NCBI GenBank assembly: GCA_008632985.1
Contig: QPGO01000019.1
Location: forward strand, 62,001-126,000
Length of the DNA stretch: 64,000 bases
Direction of reading: 5' to 3'
Origin: Psammoneis japonica
Taxonomy: Eukaryota
The translations under genes and the position numbers were made by a program. The notes beneath the pieces were generated by a model that made no database searches, was not told the DNA's origin, and worked only from the letters and a program-made list of their open reading frames with translations. The first letter of the stretch is position 1, and the number at the start of each line of letters is the position of its first letter. This document shows, one piece after another, positions 16,279 through 56,240 of this stretch.

Positions 16279-17987
16279 ATGGCTCCTGCTACCGGAAAGC
16301 GTCAAGGCTCCCTCGGGTGCCCTTGTAAAGGATGCATGTATTACTTTGGTAAATCGTTAGACAAGGCAGAGCGCACAAAGGGCGCAAAGATTCTTTGCAA
16401 GTTCTGCAAGCCCTTCATGGAGAAATCGTTGGCTGACGGTGTCTTTGAAGACGACACGACGGAGGCACTCTTTCGAGTTCTCAAGCACTATGAGCAAAAG
16501 AAGCACATGTCGAAGCTCCCATGGGTATTGAAGAATCAAAAGACTCTGAAAGAAAACAAGGTGTAAGTAATCAAGTTGTTTGCAGTTGTCGTATCATTTC
16601 ATTCGTCATCTCAACGAGTGCCTTCTGTTCGTTCATCAGCGAGTATCGAGCAAACTCGAGTCTCAAAAAGAAACAAGATCGCGATGAAGTCAGGGAACTG
16701 AAACTTGCCGGAGACCTCAAGGGTGTGGTCGAGAAGGCAAAAACGAGCGCACCGGCAAGACGTGCACAACAGCTTCGCGAGACGCTCGAGCGGGCAGGGC
16801 AATCCACGGACAACCTTGACGGTATGAAACTCCTTGCGACCAAATACACCAAGTTAGCTGCATGCGCTGCTACTGACGCAAGCTTGAACGTGTGCGAAGG
16901 CCAATTCATCATCGTCATGAAGGGTGCGTCCGCCGACAGTGCTAGGGCAGCAGCACTAGACGCTCACGAACTACGAAACGTCGTTTACTTGCACTCCCAC
17001 AAGCACGGATTTGATCCACACAAGCTTCCTACCTTTTCCCATTCCATTCGTTTTGGTATATGCAAGTGCGCTGCTGACTTGTACGAAGACCGGTATGATG
17101 ACGAAGACGAAGAGAATCCACTCCGAAACTCCAAGCTCCTCAGGAAGTGCTTCAGTGCTGACGATACTGATGCTTTCAACCAGGTCATTGATGAATCGAT
17201 CGAGATTGACAACCTCCGCGAGGCGATTCGCAATGAGTATCCTGGTACTCTCAAGGAGCGCCATGAACAGGGACTCCGACCTGACCTTTCTACCGAAATT
17301 GTCCTTCGTCTTATTGATGAGAACATTACGAAACCAACCATCAAGGCGTTCATTGTTGATATAATGACGGATCCCCAGCCGGACGCCCAGACTGACGTGT
17401 GGCGCGAGTGCATTCGGGGCGGCTTTCTATACACCAGTGTTCGCTCGTCCATTGCGGCTTGGTGGTTGCCCGAGTATCTTGAGCTTGGGCTTAGCGGTAG
17501 CCATTATTGGTTGCCCTTTAACGAGCGCGCATGGAATCGGTTCGTTGGGCTATCGGAGGATCCTCGTCGCTTTTATTATGACTTTACGTTGGGTTGGGCC
17601 GCCTACGATGGATCCATCAAGCCTTGGGGGTTTCAAATCATTGTTCCCTACGACGAGCGTCGGGTATCCGTCAAGAATATGTTCATCCAGGCCTACGGGG
17701 ACTACTTTGGGATCAAGCCGTATGAGAGTTCCAAAATGACTAGGGTCGAAGGTGGTAAGAGCGTCACGTACCTAACCGTTCAACGTAAGCAGGAAAAGCG
17801 AGTCATTGCACAAGCGCTTCTTCCTACGGTTGGTGAACCAATGTTGCTTTCGGCCGACGGAGCCTACCCCGAGCGCAAGCGCTACGTGAGCCGCCAGCGA
17901 ATGAAGGATCTCCTGTTGATGGCGGCGATCGAAGACGATGGGTCTTTCGTTTCGTCCGCCGACAAGGAGAACGTTGCGCCCTACTAG
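16279..17987 (+). CDS. Unknown protein; N-terminal CxxC...CxxC, C-terminal possible LAGLIDADG-like domain; 2 exons
   Basis: Exon 16279-16562, GTAAGT...CAG intron 16563-16639, and exon 16640-17987 join in frame. Normal Tyr and TpA content. Confidence 0.8.
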
Positions 17988-19378
17988 TGAGATGCTCGTG
18001 TCGGGGCTTGGGAAACGTCTTTGAGATTGTCTATAGGACACGACTGGATTTGTGAGAAACAAGAATACAACAGAGAATGGTACAAGTGCGTATTGGGCAT
18101 GGGACTTACGCATTGTTGGTTGTACCAATGCATGTGATGCCAAGAGTCTATTCGGTCTACTCTTGGCGATGATTGTTTACTGTAGCTTGTGTAAACTAAT
18201 CATTTAGGAATGGTCGAGAAGATGCTTTATTCGTATTGTATCTCCACAGAGTAATGATGTAGTTTTGTAAAGTTGTAAAGCACAACAGATGCAATGCCGA
18301 GCCAACCGTAGCACAGCCGTTTCGTTGTTAACAAGCACTTGGTCTCTACTCGACAAGTGAGGCACCGAATACACGCACAAGCTTGTTCCGCACCCTCCCT
18401 CTGGTAGTGAAGCTGAGTCTTGTAAAATTGAATGGAACTGTTCATTAGCAAGCAATTTGAATTATGATAGCTCTGTAGCAACATTCCGTCTCAAAATGGT
18501 TGGTTCATGCAGTAAAAAGTCGTAGTATATGACCAAGCGCATGTACGTACCTAGCACGTTTCGTTGACTCTTTCTCTACACTGACGAGAAAGCACAACAA
18601 ACTGTGAGGATATATATCGAAGAGACAAGGCAGGCAACAAATTCTAACATTGCTTAACACTACCATTCGACTGCAAAACAATATGCATGCTGGTAGTGAC
18701 ATAAACATCGCGCCGTATGCAGAGCAATAAAACAACATCAACAGTAGCCACAGTGACAGTGAAATGAGAAAGATACGGATACAGTAATTGACGACTTTAT
18801 CTGCACGAGGCACAAGGACTCATTAGATTACGCTGATATCGAACGAATAAGATGACATGACACGGACGAATCGGTGTAAGACCTGTCACATTTCTTACAT
18901 GACTTGAATGATCGAGATAAGTAGTTAGACTTACGCATTCCGCACTGTATTGTTACAGAAGGTGTCAATGCCTTGCCTTTTTTACGATAGAGTACCTGAG
19001 GGCCTCTCATGCACGATTGAAGTGGACTGATAAAGTACATAATGAAAAATGACAAGAGGTTCGAAGGTGGTGTGCCGCAGATGCAAGATAGATCTGTATC
19101 GATCGTAGAAGATAGTGCGGAGTCGCCACGCACGCACCGCCGGAACTAGTATATTGGAAATATTGTGTAAGCACATACTGAGATTCTACGAAAAATAAAG
19201 AACCTATGTTCATTTAAATAAGATTGAAATTAAAAAGTGATACTCCGTGCGTTAGACGCGCAAAATATACTGGAACACGTAGAATTCTACGAGGAATTTC
19301 TCAAAAACCATTGAAAAGCTGGCATCGTACGGTACCCAGGTTTTTAAAAGCCAAAATTTCAATGAGAAAGAGTTGTTG

Positions 19379-19450
19379 TCACCTCTGGCGCAATGGCAGC
19401 GCGTGTCACTCCTAATGATGAGGTTCCGGGTTCAAATCCCGGGTGGTGTT
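19379..19450 (+). tRNA. Degenerate tRNA-like sequence (anticodon CCT); pseudo-tRNA or SINE head
   Basis: D arm GCGC-AATGGCA-GCGC, anticodon arm TGTCA-CTCCTAA-TGATG, T arm CCGGG-TTCAAAT-CCCGG. The acceptor stem has two mismatches. Confidence 0.65.
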
Positions 19451-19599
19451 TAACTTCCTGTTTTGCAACCATGGGAAATCACACACCGCACTTTTTTACA
19501 CGAAAGCAGTGCGCTGCACACATCGAGCTTTTGCTCCCAACGACAGCTGCATCTGCTCAAGGCAGTGACTGCTGATGCACAAAAAGCAGATGCCAGCAC

Positions 19600-20900
19600 A
19601 AGTGCAAGCACCTGCCACCTCAGCAGGCTGACAAAACCAAATTCGAAAACCACCAGTGTGTGTCCTTTGAGTCTGTGCCAGACCCTTGTGCAGGTTGTGT
19701 CTTCTGAGTGCCATCTAAAGAGCACATCTTGTGCTGTTGTCCATTCTTTGGCCACTCGTCCTCTTCCAGGAGTTGACCCCAGCCTGTGGTGAGCTGCACT
19801 TGGGGGCGGCTTTCCCAAAGCATCGGACTGGCAAAGTTGTCATTGACAACTGACCAAAAGGTTGCAACGAGCTGGCTGTGCTTTTGGATGGTTCCCAAAT
19901 TGCACTCACCAGCCCTGCTGCTGGACTGTTCTCTTTGACCTGCTTTGCATGCTCCCTGATCAACTTGCTCTGCTTCGTCAAAGCCTCTGGGCACACTGGA
20001 GTGTGGAGCGCATCTTTGTCTTTCTTGTCACAGGAGTCAGGACATCAAGAGTGATCTTGGACTTTCCACCTTTCTTCAACCATTTTCCCATTTTGCGCAT
20101 GCCTGTGGAGTGCTTGGCAAGCCACCAGCAGTGCCCTGTTGCCAGCTGGTTCACAACTCTGTCGATGGCCCCGGGGCTCCCAGATGACACTCTCTGGAAA
20201 CCATCTCTCACCAACCTTCATTTTTGTTGGACCCAGCGTTGACAGAGTTTCGCGCCACACAAGTGATTGAAAATTTGTGCCAGAAGCTTTGTCAAGATCT
20301 TGCATGCACTGGCAAATGCTGGCAATGTTTTGTCTTGCACCAAACATTGTTTCTGTGTTGGCCAGTTGCAAGTGGCATGTTGCCATCCTTGCTTTTGCAA
20401 GATCATCCATTTCTGTGTTGAGACGTGCCCAGCACCTGTCTGACTTGCATCTTGGCCTTGAACCTTGAGGATCTTTGACCCATTGGCTCCAGTGGGGTGT
20501 TCTCTTGGCCAGTTTGTTCTTGGCAGTGCTGGGCAAATCAAAAAAGTGATTGGAGCATGGCATGACTGGCTTGCATGGATCCAACATTCTGGTGAGCACC
20601 TGGGGTCAGTGCTGGGGTTCTTTGGGGGTTCTTGCTCTCTGTCGCATGCCACCTCAACTGCTCTGCGGCAGCTTGGAGATCAGCACATCTCACACTCCCA
20701 ACACTGCACACTCCAGCTTCAAAATCACCCAAGCATCATCAAGAAAAAGCTTGCCAAAGGTTCATTCCCAGCACAATGTGGTGAAAAAAGAGTTGACAAG
20801 CAGATCTCAAATTCTCCCTGGCACTCCTGAAGCCCAGGTGATGCCAATTTTTTCTGCTCAGCATGGCAGCTCCTCCACTTGTTTGCAGCGTCTTGTGTGC
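19600..20900 (-). mobile_element. Heavily degenerate non-LTR retrotransposon 3' region (RNase H-like / Cys-rich tail)
   Basis: Residual peptides WVKDPQ...DRCWARLNTEMDDLAK and WWLAKHSTGM..GKWL resemble LINE RNase H and C-terminal motifs. The tract is almost TpA-free. Confidence 0.5.
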
Positions 20901-21049
20901 CACATCGTCAAAGCTGGGTTTTTTTGTTGAGGACTCTGCAGCTTCCAAATGGTGCTGGGGCACACAGGCATTTGTGCAGCGCAAATTTGTGCTGAACTTT
21001 GCCTCTGTCAAAAATTGGCACCTCTCCTGGCACTCCAGCTGATGTGACT

Positions 21050-22154
21050 GATGCACTCCAGCCCTGAGCGCAACTCATCCATTTGGTGTTGGGCACCTGC
21101 GGAATTCCACATGTTGCAATCTCCATGCCAAAAGCATTTGGGCAATGAACTTGTTGACAATTGCCAACAGAAAAAGAGGCAATTTTGTGAAAGCACAGAC
21201 TTGCTCATGCTTGAAGTGCATTGTCTCCAGCTTCACATCAAAGAATGCCCCCAGCCAATTTCTGTTCTTGCAAATGGTCATAACATGAAGCCTTTGGCTT
21301 TGCAAAAACAGGGAGCATGGGACAATTTTGTAGAATGGTGCAAACAGAAATGTGTGTGAGTGACATGTGGCACATTGTCAAAAAAAAACTCTCTTGTCAC
21401 AGCCCAGCAACACCAGGCCCCACTTGAGCTGGAGTGCATCAGTCCTGGGCAGGACTCCATGTGACACTTGGCTTGCAAGACTCTGCTGCATGTGAAGAGC
21501 TCTGCAGCAAAACTGTTGGGTGATGAGTGCCGATGTGTCAAACATTGCCAACAGAAAAATGTCCATTTTGCAAATGCTTGAACACACACTCGTGCTTGTG
21601 GCACATCATCTCCAGTTTGCCTGGGTGTTTTCTTTGGACATTTTGGAAAATGCTCGCAGCCAGCTGTGTTGTTCTCACAAGTGCATCATAAAAAAACTCT
21701 CATGTCACACAGCCCAGCAGTGCAAGGTTCTCTTGCCCAGAGCTGGAGTGCATCAGCCCCGCCCTGGGCGGGACTCCATGCGATGCAGGCCAACAGAATT
21801 CTGCGTGCAAAGCTTCGTGGTGGTTTGTGTGCTGGGTGACAAACAAATTTGTCTTGGGCATCTGAACAAACAACCAAGTTTGCAGCACAGCTGCACCTCT
21901 TCACACTTGCAAGTTTTGAAAATCTGCCTGCACCGCAGTGCCACTCCACAAAAACATTTGAGGTTGGCTTCTTCATGCAAAACACAATGTTGTTGCTTTG
22001 AGCAGATTGCCAAATGGCTGAGCTGCAAGCAAAACACCACTGAGTTTGTGCAAAAATGCACGTGCATGACATGTGGCACACACAACAACAAAAACACCAG
22101 CACCGCGGTCCGGCAGCATGACATCCCACACCTGCTGCGAGACTGGAGCGCATC
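21050..22154 (-). mobile_element. Tandem array of about 3 decayed copies of the 390-bp MITE family
   Basis: Units end in ctggagtgcatc / ctggagcgcatc (about 21440, 21754, 22154) and share ttgccaacagaaaaa and gaattctgcgtg with the copy at 43943-44331. Confidence 0.65.
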
Positions 22155-23128
22155 GCACGCAGAGCCGCTCTCCCATTCTTGGTGCCCCACCCATGAAAGA
22201 GCAAGGTGGCTGGGTGTCATTGAACCCATCTGTTTTGTTGCAGTGGCACTGCAGCTCATGTTTTGTCACTTGTTTTTGTGGCGCAAAAGAAAAATTTCAA
22301 CGTGGCTCAAACAAAGCCGTGCCGTGAGCTCAGCCAAAAGAGAGACACTTTTTGGCAGCAAATGATGCACAACAATGCCAAGACCTTGCAGGCACCCCTC
22401 CCTCCTCTGTTGCTTTGTGTTGTGTTTCATGGCACTGGCATGTGCTGCAAAGCTCACTTTGGATTTTGAGCGCGGGTGTGAAAACTTGTGTGTGTGCGCG
22501 AGACAAGCAAAAACGCAGGGTGACTTTGGTGTTTGGTGAGAGAGCAGATGCTGCAGCACTGTGTGGTGGAAAAGAGAGTTGGTGGGGGAGAGCTCCCCCT
22601 GCTTTCTGATGAGGATGCTGTGTCCGTGTGTGCCACCCAGCAGTTTTGGGCACATCGCCGGCCCACAACCAAGGCCCAAAAAAAGCAACTTGAGACGAGG
22701 GCCAGTGCTGCTGTCAGCACACCACCAACAAAAAATGGTTGGGGTTGGTTGCACACTTCTCTGTTCCACCTTCATGTAAAAAAGGCGACATCTCTGTCAA
22801 GGATGCCTTTTTTGCCTTTGCCAAATGCTTCTGTCTCTTTTTTCGACGTCACATGTCAATCTGTCGACAGTGAAGACGGTCATCTGCTCTCATGCTTTTT
22901 TTCGTTGCCCCAAAATGTCCATCGATCTGTCATCAGTGACTTCGGACAAATCTTACGGATCATCTCGTTAAATGTTTCAGGTTTCAGAACTGCACCATGA
23001 AATCAAGAATGGATCAAAAGAATGCGAACGATGCGAGATGCAAAAAGCCGATTGTTTGATGCCTTATCGTCGCTCACACAATGTAACATACGTGAAAACA
23101 CACAAACGAAACATACTCTTTCCTGAAT

Positions 23129-26100
23129 ATGAAAAGCAAACGAACGATTGGCGCATTGTTGTGCCTATTTACACCACCCGCATCACCACTGTTTGTTCCA
23201 CGATGTGGTAAATCGGAAAGCAATCCCTGTGAAATCTACACCTACCAAGATTTGAGAAGCATAAATGACAATGGACTCGACCTTTATTACACATTGATGA
23301 ATGATATTACCGCTGATCCAACTGTCAGCTTTGAGCCAATCGCGGCTCGGGCTTTTGGTTCTTTTCGGAGATTTTCTGGAGTTTTCAATGGGAATGGACA
23401 CACCATTCGAAATCTGTACATTAATGGCAGTGCATATGCTGGAATGTTTTCGATACTTGAAGGGCAGGTTCACAATCTTATTTTAACCAATATCACCGTC
23501 ATTGGCAAAGACCAAGTGGGTGCTCTTGCTGGACGAGTGTCGGGACGCTCAAGTACGTCGGTAAGCGGCATTACGATTGTGAATCCCACCATAAGAGGGA
23601 GTTCAAATGTCGGTGGAATTGCCGGAGATGATGGCAGTGCAACTGCAGCTGCATGCTGTCATGTGATTGGCGGAAGTATTCATGCGGAAGAAGACTATGT
23701 CGGGGGGTTGTTTGGATTCAAGCTCGACGGCTCCATTCAGAACTGCACCTCGACCAAGGTCAACGTCAGGGCAAGCGAATCTCATAGTGGTGGTCTGGTT
23801 GGACAGCTCGAAGACGAGGCAAAGATCTACAACAGCTATGCAACCGGCGTCGTCGTTGAGGGTAGTGCACTTGTAGGCGGTCTTGTAGGTTTTGCTGGAT
23901 ACGGGACGAAAATCCTCAACAGCTATGCAATAGGAGACGTCAATGTGACTGAGACGCAGGGAAATTCATACGGGGGAGGTCTATTGGGCCAGCAAGACAG
24001 CGAATGCTCAATCACCAACAGCTTCGCCATTGGTGTGTTTTATGGCGGCGGAACGATTGGTGGCCTGGTTGGAATTCACCCGAGGGATCGCTTCTGCAGA
24101 ACAATTATGCTGCTTTAGGTCCTGCGTTTGGAAATCGGCAGGCGAAAGACAACGAAGCAAAAGTCGTCAGTGATTTGAGTCGCTTCCAAATTCAGCAGAG
24201 CGAACCACTGTCCAGCTGGGATGCCAACACGTGGATATTTGAAAGAGAGCGGTATCCAACTCTTCAATGTGTGCCGGGCGTCGGTAACGGCATTTTTGTG
24301 GGAGGACCGTACCGCGGGAAGAGCGGTGAGCCTATTCACCTCAACGGAACAACCTCTGATTTTCAAGGTGCCTCCTACACTTGGACTGTCGATAATAACA
24401 AATGTGCCTTTACGGACAACAAGGTCATTGGACCCGTTGTCTCTTGTAGCAGCTTCACCGAGCTTTCAACCTTGGTAAGAGCATGTCTAACTATTTCCTT
24501 CGATCAACGGAGTGTCGAAAAATGCACCTCTCTTTTCATCACCGCGAAACCGTCTGGGCCGAGTACGGGTTTTGCACCAGGTTGTGGAACGAAGAAGAGC
24601 GATCCGTGCGAGGTTTCTACATACCAAGATCTCAAGAATATCGAGTTACATGGCATAGACTTGCACTATGTCTTGGCGTACGACGTTAACGGTAAAAAGG
24701 GCGAAAGATTTGCTCCAATTGGATCTATCAAGTCCAAGCCATTCACAGGGACGTTTGATGGAAGGGGGCATACGATCCGAAAATTACACATTGGCCGCAG
24801 AGACGACTCAGACGTTGGCCTGTTCTGGAAAGTTGTTGCGAATCCTCCGTCGACCTCCATAGTTTCTAATCTCGTTTTGGAAGACTCAGTATTGGTTGGT
24901 AGGGCCTACGTCGGAGCGCTTGCTGGAAGTACTTATGGTGGAGGGGTCTCCATCGCGAACGTCACTGTCACAAATGTCAAAGCAAAGGGCCTTTTTGACG
25001 TTGGTGGGCTTGTTGGACACACTCGTGAGGGAAACAATATTTCATGCTGCCATGTCATTGACGGAACGGTCACCGGAGAATCAACGACATGGGCGGGTGG
25101 ACTTGTTGGTAGTTCTAATGGCGCTTTTTTTGAACAGTGCAGTGCCCAGCGGGTCAAAGTAACGTCATCTCGTCGTGGTGCTGGTGGTCTGTTGGGTGTA
25201 GCATCAAGCGCTGGCGGAACAACGATTAGTAACTGCTTTGCGCGAGATGGAATCGTGACTGGTTTATCGTTTGTTGGCGGCCTTGTTGGATACTTGAGCA
25301 GATCGAATTCTATTCAAGACAGCTATGCATCGAGTGACGTTCAAGTGACTGGGGACCCACGTAACTTGGATAGTCGCGGCGGTGGCCTTGTTGGCAGTAC
25401 GTTCGAGGGAGCATCTATTTGTAACAGCTACGCCTCTGGCTCTGTATCAGGTGGAAACATCAAAAGGGTCGGCGGCCTAGTTGGCCTCTTGGAACGCAAA
25501 GTGAAACTCGAGAATAACCATTGTGCTCATGATCCGGCTATTGGAAACACCCAAGTGAAAGAAACTCAGGCAGCTGTAGTGAAAGGCGGCGCAAGCTACT
25601 TTCAGAACAAAAGCAACGAACCGATGGGAAGCTGGAACAGAAACAGTTGGATCTTCCAAAACGGAAAGGACCCTACCCTTCAATGTTTGTCGAACGCAGA
25701 TACTTCTGATCCATTCAAAGACTTTCACGAGATTGCGTGCACTCTCAATTTCTGTCTGAACCGATTGCGCAACCAGTTCGATTCCCAATCGGCGGATTTT
25801 GGTGAGTCCCAGATGTATTTTGATAGGGCGAGAAACGGGGTAGCTGGTGGCAAGCGACTGATAAAGAAGCTAGGAGAAGTGCTACAATCTCTCGATAAGC
25901 TCAAGGCGGCAATGGTGTCTGTAGAAAAGATGAACTCAACCTTTCCCGAGGTTGCTGGTGACCTTGGGACAAGCGGAAGCACCTGCGCCGTAAATCTGCT
26001 GGAAAAGTTCATCAACACATTTGACGGAACAGATGTCATTGACGAAAAGGCAATTAATGTCATCATGGGAATTTGGTCACGTGCAAAAGCCAAAAGAGAA

Positions 26101-26199
26101 ATAAATAAGTTCAAGGCCAGTGTCGCGACCAGTCAGCGGGGTGTTTCAAGGATGATGAAAGCTCTAGACAGAGCAGTTGTGCCATTGTGTGACAAGTAG
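23129..26199 (+). CDS. GLUG-motif repeat protein with two GLUG-rich modules, a PKD/Ig-like linker and a helical C-terminus; one frameshift near 24072
   Basis: Many VGGLVG / GGLVG repeats and F.G.FDG.GHTI motifs in both ORFs. Adding one A at GGAATTC joins 23129..24118 to 24004..26199. Confidence 0.85.
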
Positions 26200-26539
26200 G
26201 TTGAAAACGACACTTGTGCTTGTCAAACACTGCACTTCACATTTGAAACCCACAGGTGACATCTGTAAACTGTAAGAAGTGTAATGCCGCCAGACAAACT
26301 GATTCATTCTCTAGTCTTGCTCTATTGACAAGAACTCACCGTTGCATTGATGCCGGTAGCCGCTCCACGTGTCGGAGGGAAATCGGATCTTCAACGCAGA
26401 TCTGCCATACAGTAGTCCCCTACGGGCATGACGATTCCTCCTGCTATTCTTCTTGCAATTGGCATAAGTCATACTGCACAGCATCGCAATAATCTACTCT
26501 GAACTCGCAGTCACCCAGATCCAGCTTCTAGAAGCAGCA

Positions 26540-27480
26540 ACATGTTGGATGAACCGTGCGAGGTTTCTACATGCCAAGATCTAAAGAATGTCGACTTACA
26601 GGGCGTGGACTTGCACCATGTCTTGGTGTGCAACATTGACCGTGAAAATGGTGACAGAATTCCTCCAATTGGATCTGTCAAGACCAAGCCATTTGCAGGG
26701 ACGTTTGATGGAAGGGGGTTTGCAATCTGAGAATTAAACATTGGCTTCAGAGACGACTCAGACATTGGCCTGTTCTGGAAAGTTGTTGAGAATCCTCCGT
26801 CGACCGCCACAGTTTCCAATCTTGTCTTGGAAGACTTTGCATTGGTTGGCAGGACCTGTGTTGGAGCGCTTGCTGGTGGCACATGTGGTGGAGGAGTCTC
26901 AATCGTGAATGTCACTGCACAACCAGCTCAATTCCCAATCAACACAATTTTGAGGAGTTCCAAAGATGTCATGTGCAGCTGGCAGCAAGCAACTGAGAAA
27001 GAAGCAAGGAGAAGTGCTGCAATCTCTCGACAAGCTCAAGGCCACAATGATCTCTGCAGAAAAGATGAAACCAACCTTTCCCAAGTTTGCTGGTGACCTT
27101 GGGACAAAAAATGGAAGCACTGCACCACAAATCTGCTGGAAAAGTTCATCAACACATTTTAAAGAGCAGACGCCATTGATGACAAGACATCCAATGCCAT
27201 CAGGGGCATTTTTGGTCACATGCAAAATCCAAGAGAGAAAGGAACAAGTTCAAGGCCGGTGTTTTTTGCCAGTCAGCGGGGTGTTTCAAGGATGATGAAA
27301 GCTCCAGACAGAGTGGTTGTGCCACTGTGTGACAAGCAGGTTGAAAATGACACTTTTGCACTTGCAAAGAAACACTGCAACTCACCTTTGAAACCCAGAA
27401 GGGACATTTGCAAACTGCAAGAAGTGTGATGCTGCCTGAGGAGCTGATTCATTCTCCATTGACAAGAACTCACCGTTGCA
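26540..27480 (+). pseudogene. Internally deleted, TpA-mutated tandem copy of the GLUG gene
   Basis: 26540-26915 matches about 24600-24970 and 26918-27480 matches about 25770-26345. STYQD>STCQD, HYVLAY>HHVLVC, STYGGG>GTCGGG. Confidence 0.92.
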
Positions 27481-31925: not shown

Positions 31926-32053
31926 GAGTCGATTCGGAGCTCGTAGCTGCTAGGGCCCTAATGTTAACATCAGTCTCCTAAAATTTCCCTGCTGAGCGCG
32001 ACTGATCCCTCTGTTTGGAGAGAGTCGTGAATGATGTCCTATTCTTAGAAGAG

Positions 32054-38627: not shown

Positions 38628-38863
38628 TGTATGTGTGTGTATGTGTGTGTTGTTGTTGTGAAACGCGAAGCGAAAAGATTCACAAGGAAAGATTTTGTGA
38701 GCTTGAGAGTTGTTGTGGCGCAACACTGTGGCTACGCGGCGTTCTACGTAAATTTTGTACCAGTGTACAGTTCCTACGGTTCTTTACGTGACATCTTCCA
38801 CGTGGAAACTCAATTTCATCGCGGGACTGCAACGTGGACAGAAACCGGGACTAAAAGATTCTT

Positions 38864-39253
38864 GACGCGTTCCAGGTCTAGGTGGGACCTCGTACTACTG
38901 AACTGTGACATCGATAGTTTTTTGAGTCTCGTCGTATGTCGCGCACGTAGATTTCTACGTGATTTTTTCGATATTTTGTGTCATTTTACGGTACACTTAT
39001 TGAGCGATCCGTCCAACAACTTTTGACATTTTTTGTTACAGCGCGATTCTACAATGTCTTAAGAATCGCGTAGGGCAGGCGAAGTTGCAAAAACGTCGAG
39101 TGGTAAGAGGCATAATTGTACCACAAACTTGGCCGTTTATTTGATGTTGAAGATAAATATATCCATTAATTAAATTCTCGTACTACGGAGCTCGCACGTA
39201 GAATTCTACGGGCCCAATGTCACACGGAGTCCCACCTAGGGCTGGAACGCGTC
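38864..39253 (+). mobile_element. 390-bp MITE, unmutated copy
   Basis: ~25-bp TIR GACGCGTTCCAG..CTAGGTGGGAC and 4-bp TSD TCTT (38860-38863, 39254-39257). TpA-rich. Confidence 0.92.
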
Positions 39254-39289
39254 TCTTGTTCTGTTTTCAGACGCGCGCGGATGAGTCTG

Positions 39290-40915
39290 CAATCGAAATC
39301 GTGGCAAGGATGTGTTTTTCAGCGAAAATGATGAACAAGAAACGGAAGCTCCCGGGGGACTCGCCTCTCTTTCTAGAGAAAAAGAGTGCTGGTGATGTTG
39401 CATTGGCAAAAAAGACACACGTGTGTTACAAGAAAACAATGCAGCCACGGTGGCATTGGCAAGTTGTTTGAAAAATCTTTGTGCAGCGTCAAGGCCATGG
39501 CATGCATGCGCCAATTGTTTGTTGAATCTTTCATGTCTCATTCCACAAGGACATCATGAAATGTGTCAGGGAACAATGATGATTCATTGTCATGGGACAA
39601 CGCCATCTGAAACAACATCATGTCATTGTCTGAATCATCGTCATGATCGGGTGCTGCGGAGGGAGGATGGAGCGGAGTGGTGTCATCATCAGTGGATGCT
39701 GCATGGCCAGAGCTGGAAGCTGTTGACAACAAGACAAGAATGGCTTGAGGAGGAGGATCATTCCTCACCATTGGCTGTTTCATGGCTTGCTGCAAATGTG
39801 CGATGTTGTGACTCATCGGAGGTGAACTTTGAGGCGCGACGGACGCGTTCCAGGTCTGGGTGGGACCTCGTGCTGCTGAACTGTGACATCGACAGTTTTT
39901 TGAATTGCGTCGCATGTCGCGCACGTACATTTCTGTGTGATTTTGGCAAAATTTTGCATCATTTTATAGTGCAATTGTCAGGCGATCCATTCAACAACTT
40001 TGAACATTTTTTTTTTTCTGCGCCATTCTCGAGTGTCTTAAGAATGGCGCAGGGCAGGCGCATTGTCCAAAACTTCGAGTGCCAACAGAGACACATGCAC
40101 TGCAAACTTGGCCGTTTGTTTCATGTCAAAGACAAATGTGTCCATTGACCACAGTGCAAATTGCAGAGCTCGCACGCAGAATTGTGTGGGGCAAATGTCA
40201 CAAAAAGTCCCACCTGGGGCTGGAACCCGTCGATGATGACATTGTTGTTGGGCGATCCCTCATCTGGTTGCAATCCAGAAGGAGTCATGAATGGCTCAAG
40301 AGTCTTGTTTTCATTTTCACAAAGCAAGCCGTGCAAGGTGAGGAGAGCAGCATCCCACAAGTCTCTGGGCAAAAATGCCTTTTTGCCTTGATGTCTCTCA
40401 AGATCGAGCGATTGCTTGAACGCTCAACCACAGGCATCTGCCTTGGCCAAATCTTGGAAGTTGCCATCTGTGTGTTCTTTTTTCCATGCCGCCCTTGTGT
40501 GGAGCCTTGATTGACAGAGAGAAACAAACCATGGTGTGCAGATTGAAAAACAAATTGTGCGCATCAAACCAAAGTCGGGTTGCAACTTGTTGTTGGGGGT
40601 GGGCATCGCATCATCGTTGTTGGCTCCCCTTTGTGCAGAACGTCGTGTGTTTGGTTGACAATCAGTGAGCACGTCTTTGTTCCAACAAACAAAGCAAAGA
40701 TCTCCATCCATGTCAACGCCCAACTGTGCTGGAGTGGGTGGTGTGTTGAGATTGGTGGGGTTGCCAAATGCAATTTTGCCCAAGTGTTGACCACACAGAA
40801 ATTGCCAGTCACTCTTGCTCATGGTGGCAGGTTTTTATTTTACAAGAGGCACGAGCACAGTGTCCTGTGCTCCACAACACTCGGGTGCTTGTTGAGAAGG
40901 ACATGGTCAAGGAAC
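39290..40915 (-). pseudogene. TpA-mutated duplicate of the 3' end and 3' flank of the RdRP gene
   Basis: Matches about 45041-46255. GVDMDGDLYFICW>GVDMDGDLCFVCW and KADAYG>KADACG. Interrupted by a MITE. Confidence 0.93.
39842..40231 (+). mobile_element. 390-bp MITE, TpA-mutated copy
   Basis: Same TIRs and TSD GACG/GATG. The empty site is visible in the intact RdRP gene at about 45585-45600. Confidence 0.92.
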
Positions 40916-41508
40916 ATTGCGGTTTCAATGCCCCACTTGCGCAAGAGAAGGAAGACAGGGCAAGTGCAATGGGTGTGCAGTCCGACACATGGCACAGAGC
41001 AGAAAGGAAGAACATTCAAGGTTGTCATCTAGTTGGGATCAAGATCTAATCCAAGCAATCCCATCCGAACGGCGTAGTCAGAAATTATTTAGTTTACATG
41101 TTTGCACCCAAAATCGCCACACACTAGTAGATTGGCTCTTTTACAGCTTACTCGATGACTGGACGGAGCTGGGCACTTCCCACCAAACCTCCCCTTCTAT
41201 CAGCGTGGTCCAGACCTCGGATGCTTGGAGTTTTGGCCCAGCACGGATGCGGATTGACGCCTCACAGACAACCACCACCGTTGCGGCGACAGGGACTAAG
41301 CATTACTAGTGCTATGACTTATAAAGAAAGAGTTTCCGAGTCAATTTTCTCTTCCAATTGCTATCGTACTTTTCGACAAGCATTGCCGAACGATGACGTT
41401 TGCGGGCTGAACGACAAACTTTTCATACATCTACTCTAGAAAGGTAGACCGGAGAGTCCATACTACCAAAACGAGCCCGTCTGAAAATCTTCTCCAACAG
41501 TGGTAGGC

Positions 41509-42850: not shown

Positions 42851-43942
42851 TTTTAATCTAGATATGGATAAAGATTTTTACTAGATTGGCGTTCCCTTCG
42901 ATACAGCAATACTGTAACACCTTTGTGCGAGTCGTCCCGTGCGCGCTGCTATGGGTCCCAGCCCCTAAGTAAAACCAAGCTGGCGTGGCAGGTCACTCCT
43001 GATGAGCGCACTGTACAGACCATCACCACGGTGAATTTGATCAAATCTCGCACCGACGATGGTGATTGTTGCGACGCCACGAAAGTCATCTAAACCTTCG
43101 TTTCTGCAAGAACGCATTTGACATGTTGTCAATTAGCATCTGTTTGACAGGAATCTAAACACGTTCTCCATGATTTTGATTTTGTGGCGAGTTGTTGACA
43201 AACACACCGATTCAGTCGTTCGTGACACCATGTCACATGCCGATTCTGCATCCAACACCCATGCGCCAGAAACCCACTGAGAGTAAAAGCCGGTGGTTTC
43301 ACAAAGGCAAGTGACATGCAACCAAAATGGCACCATCATTGTGCCAAAGTCTCGCTGCTGGTTGTCTCACTCAACTGTTGTGCAGAGACAAAACGGCGCT
43401 GACAGACAATCATGTGGTTTTTGGTTTTCACCGATTCACAAATTGTGAGAACACAAAATGCACCACTCTGCAACCAACAAGAATTGCAAAGAAACAAGAA
43501 ATGACCAAAAGATGTGCCAAAGGCAACACAGATGAACACAGGGGACAAAGACTTGACACAAACAAGAAGCTCTTGTTGGTGTGAGAACAAGAACAAAGTG
43601 AGCTCTCTTCTTGATTTGAACCTCAAAATTCTTGATTGGGTTTGCGTTTGTTGATCTGAAGATGGTTCGGTCATTGACGGTGGTCACAGTCATGAGTCAT
43701 TCTCACAGCTTGAGGCATGTTGAATGCACGAACATGCATGTGTGATGTTGCGGCAGCCAGCTCACACTGTCAATCCTTGTGTGAGCTCTTGTCGATGAAT
43801 CCAATGTCGCGGCAACATTGCCAAACCCGTTTTGGCAATGCCAATGACAAGAGGAACATTTTTCAAAACTTTGACAAAGAGCAAGTGCAGTGTGATCAGC
43901 CAAGTGTTTTTGAGTGTGAGAGGGTGGGGCGCGGGGTGGATT

Positions 43943-44331
43943 GACGGGCTCCAGTCCCAGGACCGTGTGACATTGGGCCCGTGGAATTCTGCGTGCGAGC
44001 TCCGCAGCAAATTTGTGCTGCAATGAAAATGCAAATCATCGCCAACAGAAAAAGAGGCAATTTTGCGAAAGCGTCTCCTCCTTCATGCTTGTGGTGCATC
44101 ATTGACAGTTTGCCCGGGCACATTCTTCAGACATTGAAGAACATGCCCAGCGCATTTTCACTCTCACAAATGTTGAAAATAGAAAGCCTTTGGCTTCGCA
44201 AAACAGGGAGCATGAAACAATTTCGCAGAATTTAGCACATGGAAATGTGCGGCGTGACATGTGACACGATCCAAAAACTGTTGATGTCACAGTGCAGTGG
44301 TGCGAGGTCCCACCTGGAGCTGGAATGCATT
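43943..44331 (-). mobile_element. 389-bp MITE, inverted TpA-mutated copy
   Basis: Both ends are reverse complements of the 38864-39253 ends, with TSD GATT (43939-43942, 44332-44335). Confidence 0.85.
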
Positions 44332-45279
44332 GATTTTGGAGCGAAAATGCAGAGTGAAGTTGGCGCACTGTTCAAAAGAATCAGCCAAACAACGTTGACA
44401 AAGTTGCACATTGATGACACTCTCCTGTAGAAGAACAAAGTCAGGTGATGGAAGTGCCCCCTTGCTTGTGTGCTTGCTAGATTGATGTCAGAGACGCAAA
44501 TTGTCAACTCTGAAAATGGAAAGTGTGGCTTGTGAACGTGTTTTCATGGATTGTGCTTCATCCATTTATGGCATGAAAGAGGTCAAACACAGTTGTCACA
44601 ACCTCAATGATGAATTGTAAAGAAGACTTTGCCATAAAATGTGCTTTGTGTTGACGTCATCAGCCATCTCGGTGTTGAGAAATGGTCAATTTTCTTCATC
44701 GCACCCCCGAGTCACGTGTCTTGAATCCCCCATGATCCGCTCGACTCGAAATTTTTGGAAGAACTGGCTAGACTTTGACCCCGGCTAGAGCCACAAAATA
44801 CCCGAGGTATGAGCATTATCAGTCTCCTACTCTTTAAACCAATGTCTTGCGAGAATGTAACAGGTATGTATTGTTCATGGTGTTGGGTATTTGGAAATGG
44901 AACTAACTTTTCGCGGGGCGCCTTTATTGCACGTGAAAGTGTGAGGGACGATTTTTCGTGATCGCTCTATTACTAACCCAACCTTACACTTGCGACCCCA
45001 AAAGTTGCCGGGAACTTCATATTTGAATGTCTGCAATTCCAAATCGAAATCGTGGCAAGAATGTGTTTTTTAGCGAAAATGAACAAGAAAAGAAGCTCCC
45101 GGGGGACTCGCCTCTTTCTAGAGAGAGAGAGAGTGCTGGTGATGTTGCATTGGTAAAAAAGACACGCTTGTGTTGCAAAATGGAGCCACGGTGTCATTGA
45201 CAAGTTGTTTGAAGAAACTTTTTATACAGTATCAAGGTTGTAGCATGCATGTGTCAATTATTTGTTGAATCTTCCATGC

Positions 45280-48200
45280 CTATTCAACAATGACATCATG
45301 AAACGTGTCACGGAACAATGACGATTCATTGTCATGCGACGACGCCGTCTGAAACGACATCATGTCATCATCTTCGTCGTCGACCTCTGAATCACCGTCA
45401 TAATCGGATACTACGGGAAGCGAGCGGAACGTATCCGTATCATCATTGGTGGATGCCGCGTGGCTCGAGCTTGAAGCCATTGGTGACGAAAGAAGAACGG
45501 TTTGAGGAGGAGGATTGTTCCTCGCCCTTGGCTGTTCAACGGTTTGCTGCAAAGGTGTGACGTGACTCGGAAGCGAACTTTGAGACGCGACGACGACATT
45601 GTTGTTGGACGATCCCTCGTCTGGTTGCACTCCAGAAGGAGTCATGACTAGTTCAAGAGTCTCGTTCTCATTGTCACAAAGCAAGCCGTGCAAGGTGAGG
45701 GGAACGGCATCCCACAAGTCTCTGGGCAAAAACACCTTTTTGCCTTGTTTCTCGAGGTCGAGCGATTGCTTAAACGCTCGACCGTAGGCATCTGCCTTGG
45801 CAATATCTTGGTGGTTACCGTCCGTGTGTTCCTTTTTCCATGCCTTGTATAGAGCCTTGATTAATAGAGAGAAACGAACCATGGTGCGTAGATTGAAGAA
45901 CAAATTGCGCGCGTCGTCAAACCAAGTCGGATTGTGACTTGTTGTTGGGATGGGCGTCGCATCGTCGTCCGTTCCCCTTGATACGGAACGTCTTGTGTTT
46001 GGTTGACACTCGGCGAGCACGTCCTTGTTCCAGCAAATAAAGTAAAGATCTCCGTCCATGTCGACGCCCAACTGTGCTGGAATGGGTGGCGTGTTGAGAT
46101 CGGCAGGGTTGCCGAATATGATTTTGCCAAAGTGTTGGCCGCGCAGAAACGACCAGTCACTCTCGCTCATGGCGGCGGGTTTCGATTTTACAAGAGGCAC
46201 AAGCATGGCGTCCTGGGCTCCACAACTGGGATACTTGTTGAGAAGGACATGATTTACGTCGACGCTTTCAAAGCCGGGAATAAACGCAAATCCGGCAGGA
46301 ATAGAGTCGGTGGGGTCGGGGACGCCCACCACGTTGGCGTGCTCCAGACCGACGCCTTTTTGCTGTCGACTGGCACTCACATAGTCGTCAATGGTTTCTT
46401 GTGATACTCCGCACTGCTTCCATAGAGTTTCAAGCATGAAACCCAGCTTTTTGGGAATGAACGAATCCGGTGGCTCCTTCCCACCCGAGAGAATGTTTCC
46501 TACGTACACATTCGTTTTGGTCGGGTGCAGGCCTGCGCCAGCAATAACCAGGCAAGCATGGCATACATGGCTCCCAGCGACTCGAGATGGTGCGAGCTTT
46601 CGCATCGAGCGAGTAATCTGAATCTTGTGGATGCCAGGTTTCTCGGTCAGCATGCCCTTGTACACACCAAGCGCCGGACACCAAACACGGACTTGAATGT
46701 CACTTGTGCGCTTACCGATCGCGTGGTTACCCAGGAACTTCTCAATGTAGCTCCTGGGAATGTAGCCGCACCCCATGGACTTGTCGTATCCATAATACGT
46801 GGGATCATCAATCATTTCAAAGTCCAAAGCATCCAGATTGATGAGAAAGAAATCTTGATCTTTCCGGTTGGACTTGACAGCGGGGCTGTTGAGCAACTTG
46901 ATGCGAGCGGCTGCCTTGTGCGGCGTTTCGATACCAAAGTCAGCGACGGCTTCCAGCTCTTGTTGTATGTCAACAGTAGGAATTCCAGGTCCCGACACCA
47001 AGACGTACTGAATCCAAATCTTCATGAGAGGAATGTCTCCCTTCTGCTTGCTTTGCTTTACTTGGGCACACAGCAACTCGTAACGACGGCCATTTTGCAC
47101 TCGTACGCTTTTGGAGGAAAGTGTGGGTCTTGAAATCTCTCCACACTTGACTCTGCACATCCCATAGCTATTTCATAGTGCAACAGCCGATCTCCAAATA
47201 TCTTGTACGCCATGGTGCGCTTGCGATCACTTTTGTGTCCGGGTGCTTCGAGCACCACTAGTCCAATGTTGAGTCCAAGTTCTTGTGATAATCAGGATCG
47301 TGTGCGCCTTGGACGGCCCAGGGATTATCCTGATCTTGTGGTGTTGCTCTAGCTTGAATGCTTACAGGGGCGGGAGCAGTAGGCTGAGTTGGCTGTGGTG
47401 GAGTCACTTCTCTCGACGCTCGAGAGGACTGCACACGCATCGGTTGCGGAATCGACGGTCTCGACACGCGAGAAGTGCCAGATTGGCCGGATACCTCACG
47501 AGTATTATCCTGCTCTTGTGGTGTTGCTCTACCTCGAATGCTTACTGGGACGGGAGCAGTAGGCTGAGCAGGCGCCGGTGGAGACGACACTCGAGAGGAC
47601 TGCGCACGTGTCGGTTGCGGAATCGACGGTCTCGATACGCGAGAAGTACCAGACTGGCCGGATACCTCACGAGTATTGGAGATAAGCAACAATCGATCTG
47701 GCAGCAGATGAGTAGTCACACCCTCATATTCACCCGCTGAAACGATACGCAACTTGATCTTTTGGGGACAAATCTTGAGAACTTCAGCGGTTTGGTCCTT
47801 GTACTTGCCATCTGTTACTCGCACTTCATTGCCAATGGCAAGTCCAAGTTGTTGAAGAGGGTTAGGATTGTAAGTCCCTTGGGCAGCCCAGGCATTTTCT
47901 TGCTGTAGTGATGTTTCAGCAGTTCGAAAACTTACAACAGAAGGAGGTGCGACAGACTGAGCGGGCGGTGGTGGCACTGGTATCGTCACTCGAGAGGAAT
48001 GGACATGTGCTGGTGTCGGAAGAATCGGCGGACTTGACATGCTTGAGGCATCAACGGGCTGAGGCTGTTCGGACATCTCTTGAGGAAAGATAGACTGAGC
48101 CGGCGTCGGTGGCGTCACTTCTCTCGACATTTGAGAGGACGGCAAACTCCTTGGAGACGAAATCGAAGTTCTAGAAGTGGACGAGGCATTAAATTGCCCC

Positions 48201-48397
48201 GATACCCCGCGAGTATTGGCGATAAGCAACAATTGATCTGGCAGCAGATGAGGAGTCATGCCCTCATGCTCACCCGCTGAAACGATACGCAATTGGATCT
48301 TTTTGGGACAAAGCTTGACAACTTCAGCAGTTTGGTTGCTGTACTTGCCACGTGTTACCCGTTCTTGATTTCCTACTTGATATGGATGAGTCGACAT
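45280..48397 (-). CDS. Eukaryotic (RNAi-type) RNA-dependent RNA polymerase-like protein with KOW-like repeats; two frameshifts near 47290 and 47160
   Basis: GCGYIP, QVRV...YKGML, GVPDPT, KYPS...D and catalytic DMDGD+LYFICW. Two copies of RVT.GKY..QTAEV and Pro/Ser-rich repeats at the N-terminus. Confidence 0.85.
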
Positions 48398-56159: not shown

Positions 56160-56240
56160 TAGCTTCAAATACAAGGCTCATATGGCTTCTGAAACGAGTG
56201 CTATTGTCTCGAGTGAATTACTAAATTCTCGCTACTGGAG

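Follow-up and report, generated by a model that had tools for sequence, protein, structure and literature searches.

Background

In RIP, cytosine is replaced by thymine mainly at CpA, which makes TpA and raises the AT content; both duplicates are mutated, and duplication is required. It depends on cytosine methyltransferases of the RID/DIM-2 type and takes place before meiosis. Natural ADATs act on tRNA, and the natural substrate of TadA is U33-A34-C35 of tRNA-Arg. ADARs, which prefer G as the 3' neighbour, are to our knowledge confined to animals.

The described system that comes closest to the one presented here is that of the rhizarian Bigelowiella natans. In the available text of the preprint (Mettrop et al., bioRxiv 10.64898/2026.01.13.699255), the mutation-accumulation lines show A>G and T>C changes at TpA only, at about 6e-7 per site per generation. 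Only some of the lines show this activity. It strikes a virophage and an integrated giant virus that is present as a single copy; elsewhere mutation proceeds at an ordinary rate with a bias towards AT, and an ADAT2 homologue is proposed. Our literature search did not find TA-directed hypermutation in diatoms, and found the signature described only in this preprint.

Here we analyse a window of 64,000 bases from a diatom, in which 28,322 bases, in eight tracts called by an HMM that uses TA only, are stripped of TA. The signature matches that of B. natans; what is new is the diatom host and a strand preference for T-A-pyrimidine. As far as the available text of the preprint goes, the two systems have in common TpA-restricted A>G and T>C changes on both strands, confinement to regions with a huge rate contrast, action on resident chromosomal DNA, the possibility of a single-copy target and, genome-wide, clusters that are poor in TpA, rich in CpA/TpG and enriched in transposon domains. 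In our window we found TpA-only transitions in discrete regions of resident DNA. On the other hand, the tracts are saturated (TpA o/e 0.02-0.11), whereas the NCLDV region of B. natans is given as 0.45, and the targets are Copia and MITE elements and pseudocopies of three host genes, together with the unrecognised content of three tracts (T2, T6 and T7). The presence among the targets of pseudocopies of host genes that lie beside their intact parents is a further difference. Additional features of our window are the co-extension with CpG decay, the step-like borders and the preference of strand for T-A-Y; the available main text of the preprint contains none of the words "trinucleotide", "context", "border" and "diatom".

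Results

Stripped tracts and their borders

The stripped stretches of the window are the tracts T1 to T7 and a 232-base island at 15732-15963. Their TpA o/e is 0.00-0.11, as against 0.52-0.72 in the normal blocks of at least 1 kb. At the TA density of the normal blocks (0.0406 per base), a 1-kb run without TA has a probability of about 2e-18, which excludes chance as a source of the TA-free runs, the longest of which measures 1565 bases. Overall, the tracts have a TpA o/e of 0.08 and a CpA/TpG o/e of 1.61-1.65. The loss of TA raises the local GC content, the G+C summed from base fractions being 0.509 in the tracts and 0.473 in the normal blocks.

T1 (48..15331; TpA o/e 0.11, CpA/TpG 1.55) contains, according to homology blocks, a rearranged pseudocopy (1937-3916) of the gene at 16279-17987, tandem arrays and a Copia element. 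T2 (19499..22947) has 5 TA in 3449 bases (TpA o/e 0.02, CpG 0.30). T3 (26599..27733, plus strand; TpA 0.04, CpG 0.38) holds a pseudocopy of a GLUG gene, T4 (39243..41026, minus strand; TpA 0.07) an RdRP pseudogene fragment with a nested MITE, and T5 (43160..44765; TpA 0.07) a degenerate copy of the MITE family. T6 (48587..51000; TpA 0.07, CpG 0.31) has a polymorphic right border. T7 (60119..62536) keeps 4 TA in 2418 bases, has a CpG o/e of 0.17 and lies at single-copy depth, covered by one 9-kb contig (depth 57.5, 3 differences). The intact partners are found in the normal blocks N1 (15964..19498, plus strand; TpA o/e 0.72), with the gene at 16279-17987, N2 (22948..26598, plus strand; 0.54), with the GLUG gene, and N5 (44766..48586, minus strand; 0.52), with the RdRP gene and a KOW-domain gene. 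Pfam scans of 19 + 136 tract ORFs gave no more than RVT_2 and, below the threshold, an RdRP remnant, the latter being the only match among the 136, and the content of T2, T6 and T7 was not recognisable. Matches to C5HCH, Amastin and Rv2743c (E 0.002-0.007) were put down to chance. Homologues sought with the F5/8C and RdRP ORFs were not informative on taxonomy.

Pooled over 12 borders, the TpA o/e goes from 0.00-0.05 to 0.58-0.85 across about 100 bases, and no RIP-like gradient of leakage into the normal flanks was seen at these borders. Note that the HMM sets a border at the first TA, which inflates the value of the 50-base bin immediately outside the tract; the bins from 50 to 200 bases are free of this bias and stand at 0.58 and 0.66. 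Switches over short distances had been reported in a first-pass annotation of this DNA, and the HMM borders at 26598, 39242, 41026 and 62536 fall within about 60 bases of the positions given there. The step-like shape is weaker evidence than that annotation took it for, because the loss of TA is saturated and a graded exposure would also yield a step.

The decay of CpG extends over nearly the same tracts. CpG o/e is 0.17-0.72 in all of them but the island at 15732-15963, and 0.92-1.16 in the normal blocks. In the border profile it is 0.30-0.39 deep in the tracts and 0.88-1.10 outside; the CpG step shares the tract borders and lies about 100-200 bases further inside than the TA step.

Paired copies

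The earlier annotation had named four pairs in which one member is rich in TA and the other stripped, at distances from a few hundred bases to 15 kb. Our counts of TA in BLAST-aligned blocks bear this out (intact vs stripped): 20/14/18/6 vs 1/1/0/0 for the gene at 16279-17987 with its 3' flank, 19/16 vs 4/1 for GLUG, 14/16 vs 2/2 for RdRP and 29 vs 4 for the MITE. The distance between the members is about 350 bases for GLUG, 589 bases for the MITE, about 5.5 kb for RdRP and about 15 kb for gene 16279. The further statement that only one copy is mutated is true when one copy lies in a tract and the other outside. It does not hold for repeats with both copies in a tract, where both are hit; for example, the tandem arrays at 4916-5276 and 14124-14732, which are in-tract repeats, are all mutated.

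The gene at 16279-17987 has no family match in Pfam or the Atlas. The intact GLUG gene (23129-26199, plus strand; Glug E=3.4e-11) has a partial pseudocopy in T3 with an internal deletion. In the alignment its homology begins at about 26555, and tblastn finds three pieces in two frames, with a stop in each. Stripping of this copy extends to 27733, while homology is recognisable only to about 27480. The intact RdRP gene (45042/45280-47160, minus strand; RdRP E=2.4e-15) shares its block with the KOW-domain gene (47258-48535, minus strand; KOW E=5.4e-8). An older MITE copy splits its pseudogene in T4 (39291-39841 and 40231-40905, minus strand), in which tblastn reveals stops and a change of frame and Pfam the RdRP remnant, with E=3.5e-4. 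The background divergence in the gene pairs is 12% (350/2857).

Purifying selection had been proposed as a possible keeper of the intact copies, together with a test at synonymous sites. At synonymous T|A codon junctions the ratio is 0.51 (86/168.4) in the duplicated genes and 0.61 (204/334) in single-copy genes, as against 0.08 in the tracts; non-ORF DNA of the normal blocks, including the non-coding flanks, has a TpA o/e of 0.66. The intact copies are thus not equally depleted at synonymous sites. Since synonymous and non-coding TA are both kept and TpA shows no gradient outside the tract borders, the sparing is not due to selection. The intact RdRP gene is low at synonymous T|A (14/42.4 = 0.33), which may, judging from these counts, reflect a limited exposure of this copy.

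Whether a sequence was hit depends on its position. Position, and not copy number, seems to determine which sequence is mutated, because the LTRs and the nested MITE inside the tracts were hit, the MITE just outside was spared, and T7 was stripped at single-copy depth.

Substitution spectrum and sequence context

The mutation is specific to TA and has a direction. In nine intact/stripped blocks, aligned with MAFFT and pooled, the 149 TA of the intact copies face 65 TG, 58 CA, 7 TA and 19 other dinucleotides in the stripped copies, that is, 123/149 became TG or CA. In reverse, only 2 of the 15 TA of the stripped copies face TG in the intact copy. Outside TA, A>G (57/804) and T>C (57/788) show no excess over G>A (57/704) and C>T (37/561). 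The conversion of CpG in these alignments is asymmetric as well (102/240 vs 17/135 in reverse). As it shows no preference for T at -1, it looks like a separate, slower process, and we dropped the idea of one enzyme for the TA and CpG changes.

The base at +1 is C at 56, T at 34, A at 19 and G at 14 sites on the hit strand; on the opposite strand the counts are C 19, T 28, A 35 and G 41. A rule of T-A-pyrimidine is obeyed at 57 of the 71 informative sites (p=2.7e-7). Over all tracts, TGC is changed by +13.7 per kb and TAC by -11.1, and TGA by only +2.8. An equally good reading of this bias is 5'-R-T-A-3', the altered base then being the thymine of the opposite strand. There is weak support for runs in which TG or CA are coordinated by strand, with 68 of 114 neighbours alike (p=0.02 in pooled shuffling, p=0.12 within blocks). 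Such runs would indicate a processive enzyme; the T-A-Y context rule accounts for most of the apparent clustering.

Copia and MITE elements

The Copia-type LTR retrotransposon (5274..12385, minus strand; RVT_2 E=3.6e-22) has LTRs at 5274-5550 and 12110-12385/6 and the TSD CACAA. Both LTRs are stripped, with 4 and 3 TA remaining. While the two LTRs of an element are taken to be identical at insertion, their alignment now contains 22 differences, among them 4 of TG vs CA, 3 of TA vs TG/CA and 7 CpG transitions; about 4 of them are in neither a TA nor a CpG context. The background divergence of the LTRs is about 1.4%. Since the LTRs differ at TG-vs-CA and TA-vs-TG/CA sites, the mutation struck the element after its insertion, in place. 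Such loss of TA distorts LTR-based dating.

The CpG content of the Copia element is near normal, with an interior CpG o/e of about 0.88. The Copia interior and the island at 15732-15963 (CpG o/e 0.83) are thus stripped of TA without loss of CpG, which counts against 5mC as a guide. For Copia the retention would be explained by its youth (about 1.4% vs 12%), and a guide other than 5mC fits too.

The intact MITE (38864..39253; 390 bases, 30-nt TIRs, TSD TCTT) lies exactly at the left edge of T4 and has 29 TA (o/e 0.96); its insertion age is a live explanation for its state. The older MITE nested in T4 (39842-40231, TSD GACG|GATG) has 22 of its 29 TA converted and retains 18 of 30 CpG, compared with only 13 of 47 in the surrounding RdRP block (RdRPb). 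Because this MITE is stripped, yet richer in CpG than its surroundings, stripping went on after it had inserted. The MITE-family copy in T5 (about 43963-44328) is inverted and degenerate and aligns poorly (235/376 identical). The summed contig depth at 43668-44334 is 47366, compared with about 55 in the flanking bins.

Polymorphism between contigs

Among the listed differences between window and contigs (40 of 149), 11 of the 12 that X1 contigs show at 50573-51714 turn a TA of the window into TG or CA; the depth there is single-copy. At 51395 and 51397 the letters of the window recur in an X2 contig of the same sample. The polymorphism suggests that the process was active recently and shifts a border. 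At about 52568-52739 the direction among the listed differences is reversed and mixed with CpG changes; this could be an old allele or the result of gene conversion.

The X2 contig over 45191-48582 stops 4 bases from the border at 48586. It looks RNA-derived because of a skip of 98 bases (56622/56721), the ends of which read GT..AG on the minus strand. In the stretch compared, T5, T6 and T7 have no X2 contigs, and several normal parts (52109-55346, 57832-62617) are uncovered too, so that missing coverage is no evidence on expression. In a comparison of L026 and L037, which represent one further environmental lineage with such tracts, 9 differences were found in 985 stripped bases, none of them at TA, from which it follows only that the stripping is older than the split between L026 and L037.

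Discussion

The process has several properties of RIP as known from Neurospora and other ascomycetes: both consist of dense in-place transitions in transposons and duplicates that are dinucleotide-specific, inactivating and linked to cytosine methylation. The chemistry is nevertheless reversed, as RIP turns CpA into TpA and TpA is destroyed here. Furthermore, one duplicate is spared here, and DNA at single-copy depth is also hit. We see no rise in TpA or AT, no mutation of both duplicates as a rule and no need for duplication. The claim of the first-pass annotation that the process differs from RIP is thus confirmed by the reversed chemistry and by the sparing of intact partners at synonymous and non-coding sites. 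Decay of methylated CpG agrees with the CpG-to-TpG/CpA component and with its confinement to the same tracts, and covers this component only: it cannot remove TpA, and the loss of TA is faster (the LTRs are near saturation at about 1.4%) and reaches 100-200 bases further out.

With TadA/ADAT2-type deaminases and the DNA-editing derivatives of TadA, the changes would share a conversion of A to I that is read as G, a 5' pyrimidine and a 3' C. They differ in acting on domains of double-stranded chromosomal DNA instead of tRNA, and such enzymes do not explain the confinement. In the part of a review considered here (PMC13109818), TadA-8e A48E is described as editing adenine preferentially in "YAC".

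What we consider probable, though far from certain, is a TA-specific A:T-to-G:C hypermutation that acts in place, is limited to domains, would be guided by chromatin and would be driven by a deaminase. On this view it works on chromosomal DNA inside discrete domains, where nearly every TA becomes TG or CA. The domains cover dead DNA (a Copia element, MITEs, fragments of pseudogenes and relics of unidentified kind) and end at the edges of working gene units. A copy is hit or spared according to the side of a domain border on which it lies. Our data show the specificity for TA, its direction, the action on DNA already inserted, the role of position, the shared extent with CpG decay and the T-A-Y bias, whereas the chromatin guide and the deaminase are inferred. 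Judging from the strand and context bias, enzymatic deamination is the most likely chemistry: the adenine of 5'-T-A-Y-3' would be turned into hypoxanthine, which is read as G. As the domains nearly coincide with the CpG-depleted regions, silent CpG-methylated chromatin is the most likely guide, with CpG decay taken as its proxy. The annotation's proposal that chromatin state may direct the targeting is compatible with the loss of CpG in the same tracts, with the CpG step at their borders, with the stripping of a tract at single-copy depth and with the untouched member of a high-copy MITE family just outside a tract. In Phaeodactylum, according to the part of the study used here (PMC4504042), H3K9me2/3 and H3K27me3 mark the majority of Copia elements, which are untranscribed. 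More tentatively, one may imagine a still-active TadA/ADAT-like DNA adenine deaminase with 5'-T-A-Y specificity, common to diatoms and chlorarachniophytes, and perhaps to much of SAR, and recruited by silent methylated chromatin with edges that move allele by allele. It would strip TA from any transposon, virus or dead gene copy in that chromatin, as a homology-independent counterpart of RIP with reversed chemistry; we regard this as possible, but would not bet on it.

The same map is predicted if lesions arise genome-wide and are repaired in transcribed or open chromatin, so that they accumulate only in silent DNA. The normal blocks do match gene units with short flanks, and the end of the apparently RNA-derived contig 4 bases from the border at 48586 fits as well. 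Transcription-coupled repair is one-stranded, however, and should deplete TA on the coding strand, whereas genes stand at about 0.5-0.6 and spacers at 0.66. Repair alone would also need the 1000-fold contrast of B. natans, a system that does not separate targeting from repair, and we find this explanation unlikely. We give even less weight to a homology-sensing process akin to RIP, which duplication would trigger and which the functional copy would escape through chance or protection. It is true that all identifiable stripped segments are repeats or duplicates (Copia, MITEs, tandem arrays and the copies of three genes as pseudogenes) and that the family of T5 has a very high copy number. Yet TA is kept in the intact partners at synonymous as well as non-coding sites, and an intact member of the high-copy MITE family is only 589 bases from a stripped one. 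In addition, T7 is fully stripped at single-copy depth (at 90% likeness), the hot region of B. natans is single-copy, and the stripping of the GLUG copy runs on to 27733, past the end of homology at about 27480.

Age alone could draw sharp borders, if past bursts had struck all dispensable DNA, the sequences that keep TA were constrained or came later, and the borders were junctions of insertions or duplications. The border at 39242/39253 indeed coincides exactly with one end of a MITE whose TSD is intact, and the GLUG border at 26598 is about 45 bases from the duplication junction at about 26555. Against this, the gene pairs are 12% apart, so that the intact copies and their flanks are equally old and keep TA at 0.66; the polymorphism at 50573-51714 indicates recent, border-moving activity, and the nested MITE activity over a long span. 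On balance such a history is improbable. Sharp borders at junctions, with the inserted copy alone mutated, are also what editing before integration predicts, be it ADAR-like editing of dsRNA or the editing of either cDNA or extrachromosomal DNA, the insert being mutated before it arrives. This is hardly credible, as the LTRs are discordant at TG vs CA, the changes at 50573-51714 arose in place in sequence that is not from a transposon, and the pseudogene fragments adjoin their parents and lack features of retrocopies. The in-place changes and the 3' G as least used neighbour (14/123) do not agree with ADAR-type hyperediting through an RNA intermediate either.

If position in silent chromatin, and not homology, picks the targets of the domain-limited hypermutation that we favour, it would be a second, distinct eukaryotic way of permanently destroying DNA by mutation, found in an ecologically dominant group of algae. 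As natural before/after controls, the paired copies allow the effects of selection, copy number and position to be told apart; they also resolve the T-A-Y preference to single sites, which narrows the search for the enzyme. The polymorphic border near 51 kb is a site at which the process may be watched at work. Finally, the loss of TA removes TAA and TAG stops and leaves false long ORFs on both strands (for example, 5497-11813), which may mislead gene prediction.

Stripped tracts and normal blocks

The window, gene-dense eukaryotic DNA, has a G+C content of about 0.49. Its Acid_PPase gene has named relatives in diatoms only (36-58% identity). Calculated per kb, the observed/expected ratio (o/e) of TpA is bimodal, with values of either 0.5-0.8 or 0.0-0.15; where it is low, the o/e of CpA+TpG is 1.5-1.9. 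Using a two-state HMM, the input of which was limited to TA, TG/CA and "other", we found eight stripped tracts in which nearly every TA is rewritten to TG or CA: T1 (48-15331), a small island (15732-15963), T2 (19499-22947), T3 (26599-27733), T4 (39243-41026), T5 (43160-44765), T6 (48587-51000) and T7 (60119-62536). In total they comprise 28,322 bases, that is, 44% of the window. The normal blocks are gene units with short flanks and contain 0.0406 TA per base, so that the probability of a 1-kb run without TA is about 2e-18; the longest TA-free run in the window is 1565 bases.

With TAA and TAG erased, both strands of the stripped Copia element carry very long ORFs that overlap (5497-11813, up to 654 codons), most of them without a family match. 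Stripped tracts will yield false gene calls. A palindrome-like unit of 30 bases occurs three times at the right end of T1 (15021-15332). The island, 232 bases long and TA-free with a normal CpG (0.83), has a short normal stretch on either side.

Intact and stripped copies

A self-BLAST of the window gave nine blocks that pair normal-state sequence with a stripped copy. The gene at 16279-17987 and its 3' flank are paired with 1937-3916, the GLUG gene with 26551-27480, the RdRP gene with 39291-40905 and the MITE at 38864-39253 with 39842-40231. The first-pass annotation had noted that one copy of each duplicate is mutated, and this observation is real: in MAFFT alignments of the pair blocks, from which all substitutions were counted, the stripped copies show 65 TG, 58 CA, 7 TA and 19 other dinucleotides opposite 149 TA of the intact copies. 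In the reverse direction, 2 of the 15 TA of the stripped copies stand opposite TG. CpG of the intact copies is found opposite TG or CA in 102 of 240 cases (17 of 135 in the reverse direction). Elsewhere, A>G (57/804) and T>C (57/788) are not in excess over G>A (57/704) and C>T (37/561), and thus the change of adenine or thymine is limited to TA. The background divergence of the pairs is 12% (350/2857), which means that the duplications are old. The stripped copies are pseudogene fragments: they are partial, with internal deletions, frameshifts and stops.

We also see a repeat of about 118 bases (26438-26555 and 31133-31239, 76% identity), the two copies of which have normal TA and lie in intergenic DNA 3' of two genes; one copy stops exactly at the start of the stripped GLUG pseudocopy.

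Sequence preference

Whether a TA becomes TG or CA is not left to chance, and the next base predicts which strand is hit. On the strand with the changed adenine, the next base is C in 56 cases, T in 34, A in 19 and G in 14; the counts for the opposite strand are 19, 28, 35 and 41. YTAY goes to TG rather than CA by 28:7 and RTAR to CA rather than TG by 29:7, so that the rule is obeyed at 57 of 71 sites (p = 2.7e-7). The TA that remain in the tracts are enriched in TTAA and CTAA/TTAG, the most refractory contexts (survival 0.26), and ATAT and ATAC/GTAT are nearly gone (survival 0.011-0.013). Over all 28 kb of tracts, TGC is up by 13.7 per kb, TAC down by 11.1 per kb and TGA up by only 2.8 per kb, a crude comparison that presumes a normal starting composition. 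The preferred motif is 5'-T-A-Y, with T-A-C the best; an equivalent reading, by symmetry, is a changed thymine in 5'-R-T-A.

The natural tRNA substrate of TadA, U-A-C, is similar to this motif, whereas ADARs show the opposite preference, for a 3'-G. A similar preference, Y-A-C, is reported for a TadA variant (PMC13109818).

Mutation in place and borders

TA stripping acts in place on resident DNA. The Copia element (RVT_2; LTRs at 5274-5550 and 12110-12385/6, TSD CACAA) has LTRs that differ at 22 positions: 4 are TG versus CA, 3 are TA versus TG/CA, 7 are CpG transitions and about 4 are anything else. The differences at TG-versus-CA and TA sites indicate that both LTRs were mutated independently after insertion. 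A MITE nested in the RdRP pseudogene (TSD GACG/GATG) has 22 of 29 TA converted and 18 of 30 CpG kept, while the flanking pseudogene block has kept 13 of 47 CpG; the stripping of this tract therefore continued after the later insertion. The Copia element landed in a tandem array with a repeat unit of about 130 bases (4916-5276), which resumes beyond it (12386-12503).

The switch points described as sharp in the first-pass annotation were recovered by the HMM within about 60 bases. Pooled over 12 borders, TpA o/e is 0.00-0.05 in the final 100 bases of the stripped side. On the normal side it is 0.85 at 0-50 bases (inflated, because the HMM sets the border at a TA), 0.58 at 50-100, 0.66 at 100-200 and 0.51-0.76 at 200-1000 bases. 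We looked for a gradient of TpA depletion on the normal side of these 12 borders and found none; RIP, in contrast, leaks into flanks. The argument from sharpness is tempered by the saturation of TA loss, since a graded cause above a threshold would still give a step. CpG, an unsaturated signal, changes more gradually than TpA: its o/e is 0.30-0.39 deep in tracts, 0.50 at 100-200 bases inside the border, 0.80 in the final 100 bases and 0.88-1.10 outside.

We compared the window over 43001-63000 with contigs of X1, a sequencing run; the figures rest on the 40 differences listed out of 149. At 50573-51714, 11 of the 12 differences listed are window TA changed to TG or CA in X1, at single-copy depth, and 9 of these 11 fall among the 23 TA sites of 51200-51720. 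At 51395 and 51397 a contig of X2, a run of the same sample, agrees with the window. The right edge of T6 would thus lie about 700 bases further out in another allele or cell line of this sample. This edge looks polymorphic within one sample, as judged by a contig comparison, which cannot prove allelism; the stripping seems to be recent, with a border that can shift. Among the differences listed at 52568-52739, it is the window that is more mutated, with TG/CA opposite TA (5 sites) or CG (4 sites) of the contig.

A contig of X2 (labelled "DNA?") omits 98 bases (56623-56720) with GT..AG ends on the minus strand, over which the X1 contig is continuous, and therefore X2 looks RNA-derived. The omitted stretch is probably an intron of a minus-strand gene with an ORF at 56717-57172.

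What decides the target

The reading that fits the data best is that position decides which DNA is stripped. Repeats with both copies inside a tract are hit in both (LTRs, tandem arrays), and pairs divided by a border are mutated on one side only. For example, two MITEs of one family, 589 bases apart, have 4 and 29 TA. RIP, from which the first-pass annotation had distinguished the phenomenon, is ruled out by the reversed chemistry and the spared partners. As for homology sensing in general, this family of 390-base MITEs is apparently represented by hundreds of copies in the genome (summed contig depth 47366 at the T5 copy, 43668-44334, versus about 55 nearby), and T7, the most completely stripped tract (4 TA in 2418 bases), has single-copy depth (57.5; one 9-kb contig, 3 differences). 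A spared member of an abundant family and a stripped tract at single-copy depth mean that homology sensing does not suffice and, at present, is not required either. The MITE left intact at the edge of T4 may just be young. Loose contig ends at 43668-44334 read the MITE terminal repeat.

It had also been suggested that purifying selection preserved the intact copies. A T at codon position 3 before A can always change to C silently, and synonymous TpA in the intact copies is not depleted to the level of the tracts: o/e at T|A codon junctions is 0.51 (86/168.4) in the three duplicated genes, 0.61 (204/334) in thirteen single-copy ORFs and about 0.08 in tracts. The RdRP gene alone is low (14/42.4 = 0.33) yet inside the single-copy range of 0.16-0.95. 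Non-ORF DNA in normal blocks (13.3 kb) has a TpA o/e of 0.66 and a CpG o/e of 0.97. Sparing by selection is ruled out by these junctions and the non-ORF TpA; the intact copies were not exposed, rather than exposed and then rescued.

Turning from selection back to position, CpG is reduced (0.17-0.72) in every tract but the 232-base island, and is never below 0.92 in normal blocks of at least 1 kb. In the Copia interior CpG is about 0.88, and the background divergence of the LTRs is only about 1.4%; this points to rapid TA loss and slow CpG decay. In repeats, cytosine methylation typically leaves its mark as a decay of CpG. In Phaeodactylum most Copia elements are silent and marked with H3K9me2/3 and H3K27me3 (PMC4504042). 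Together, the CpG loss and the marks in Phaeodactylum support the proposal of the first-pass annotation, a putative guidance by chromatin state, as the best available reading.

Known systems and other lineages

Mutation-accumulation lines of Bigelowiella natans carry 231 mutations in an integrated giant virus and a virophage, of which 230 are A>G/T>C, without exception at TpA (about 6e-7 per site per generation). The giant-virus region is present in a single copy, the genome as a whole contains 124 TpA-poor clusters, and an ADAT2 homologue is put forward as the enzyme (Mettrop et al. 2026, bioRxiv 10.64898/2026.01.13.699255). The signature of the window matches the one described there. Trinucleotide context, borders and diatoms do not come up in the main text of the preprint. 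Our literature search for TA-directed hypermutation in diatoms found nothing. The phenomenon is of a kind described once before, now in a diatom, and the window contributes clean natural controls, a strand and context rule and an apparently polymorphic border.

We surveyed 80 metagenome loci (512 kb) around Acid_PPase relatives, taking TpA o/e < 0.2 together with CpA/TpG > 1.4 as stripped. Six of 1770 one-kb windows are stripped by this measure, all in L026 and L037, which are the same locus (96% identity) and therefore represent a single additional lineage. The protein encoded there shares 41% identity with that of the window and about 50% with unnamed environmental proteins. The tract (L026:1-1480 and L037:1-985; TpA 0.00-0.12, CpG 0.34-0.63) stops abruptly about 400-450 bases upstream of the Acid_PPase-CSD homologue. 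In L037, the stretches at about 4001-5500 and 10001-11500 are half-stripped as well.

In the window, 35851-37490 holds the Acid_PPase ORF followed by a second ORF. Since the diatom homologues are fusions with a cold-shock domain (420-520 residues), the two ORFs are probably one gene.
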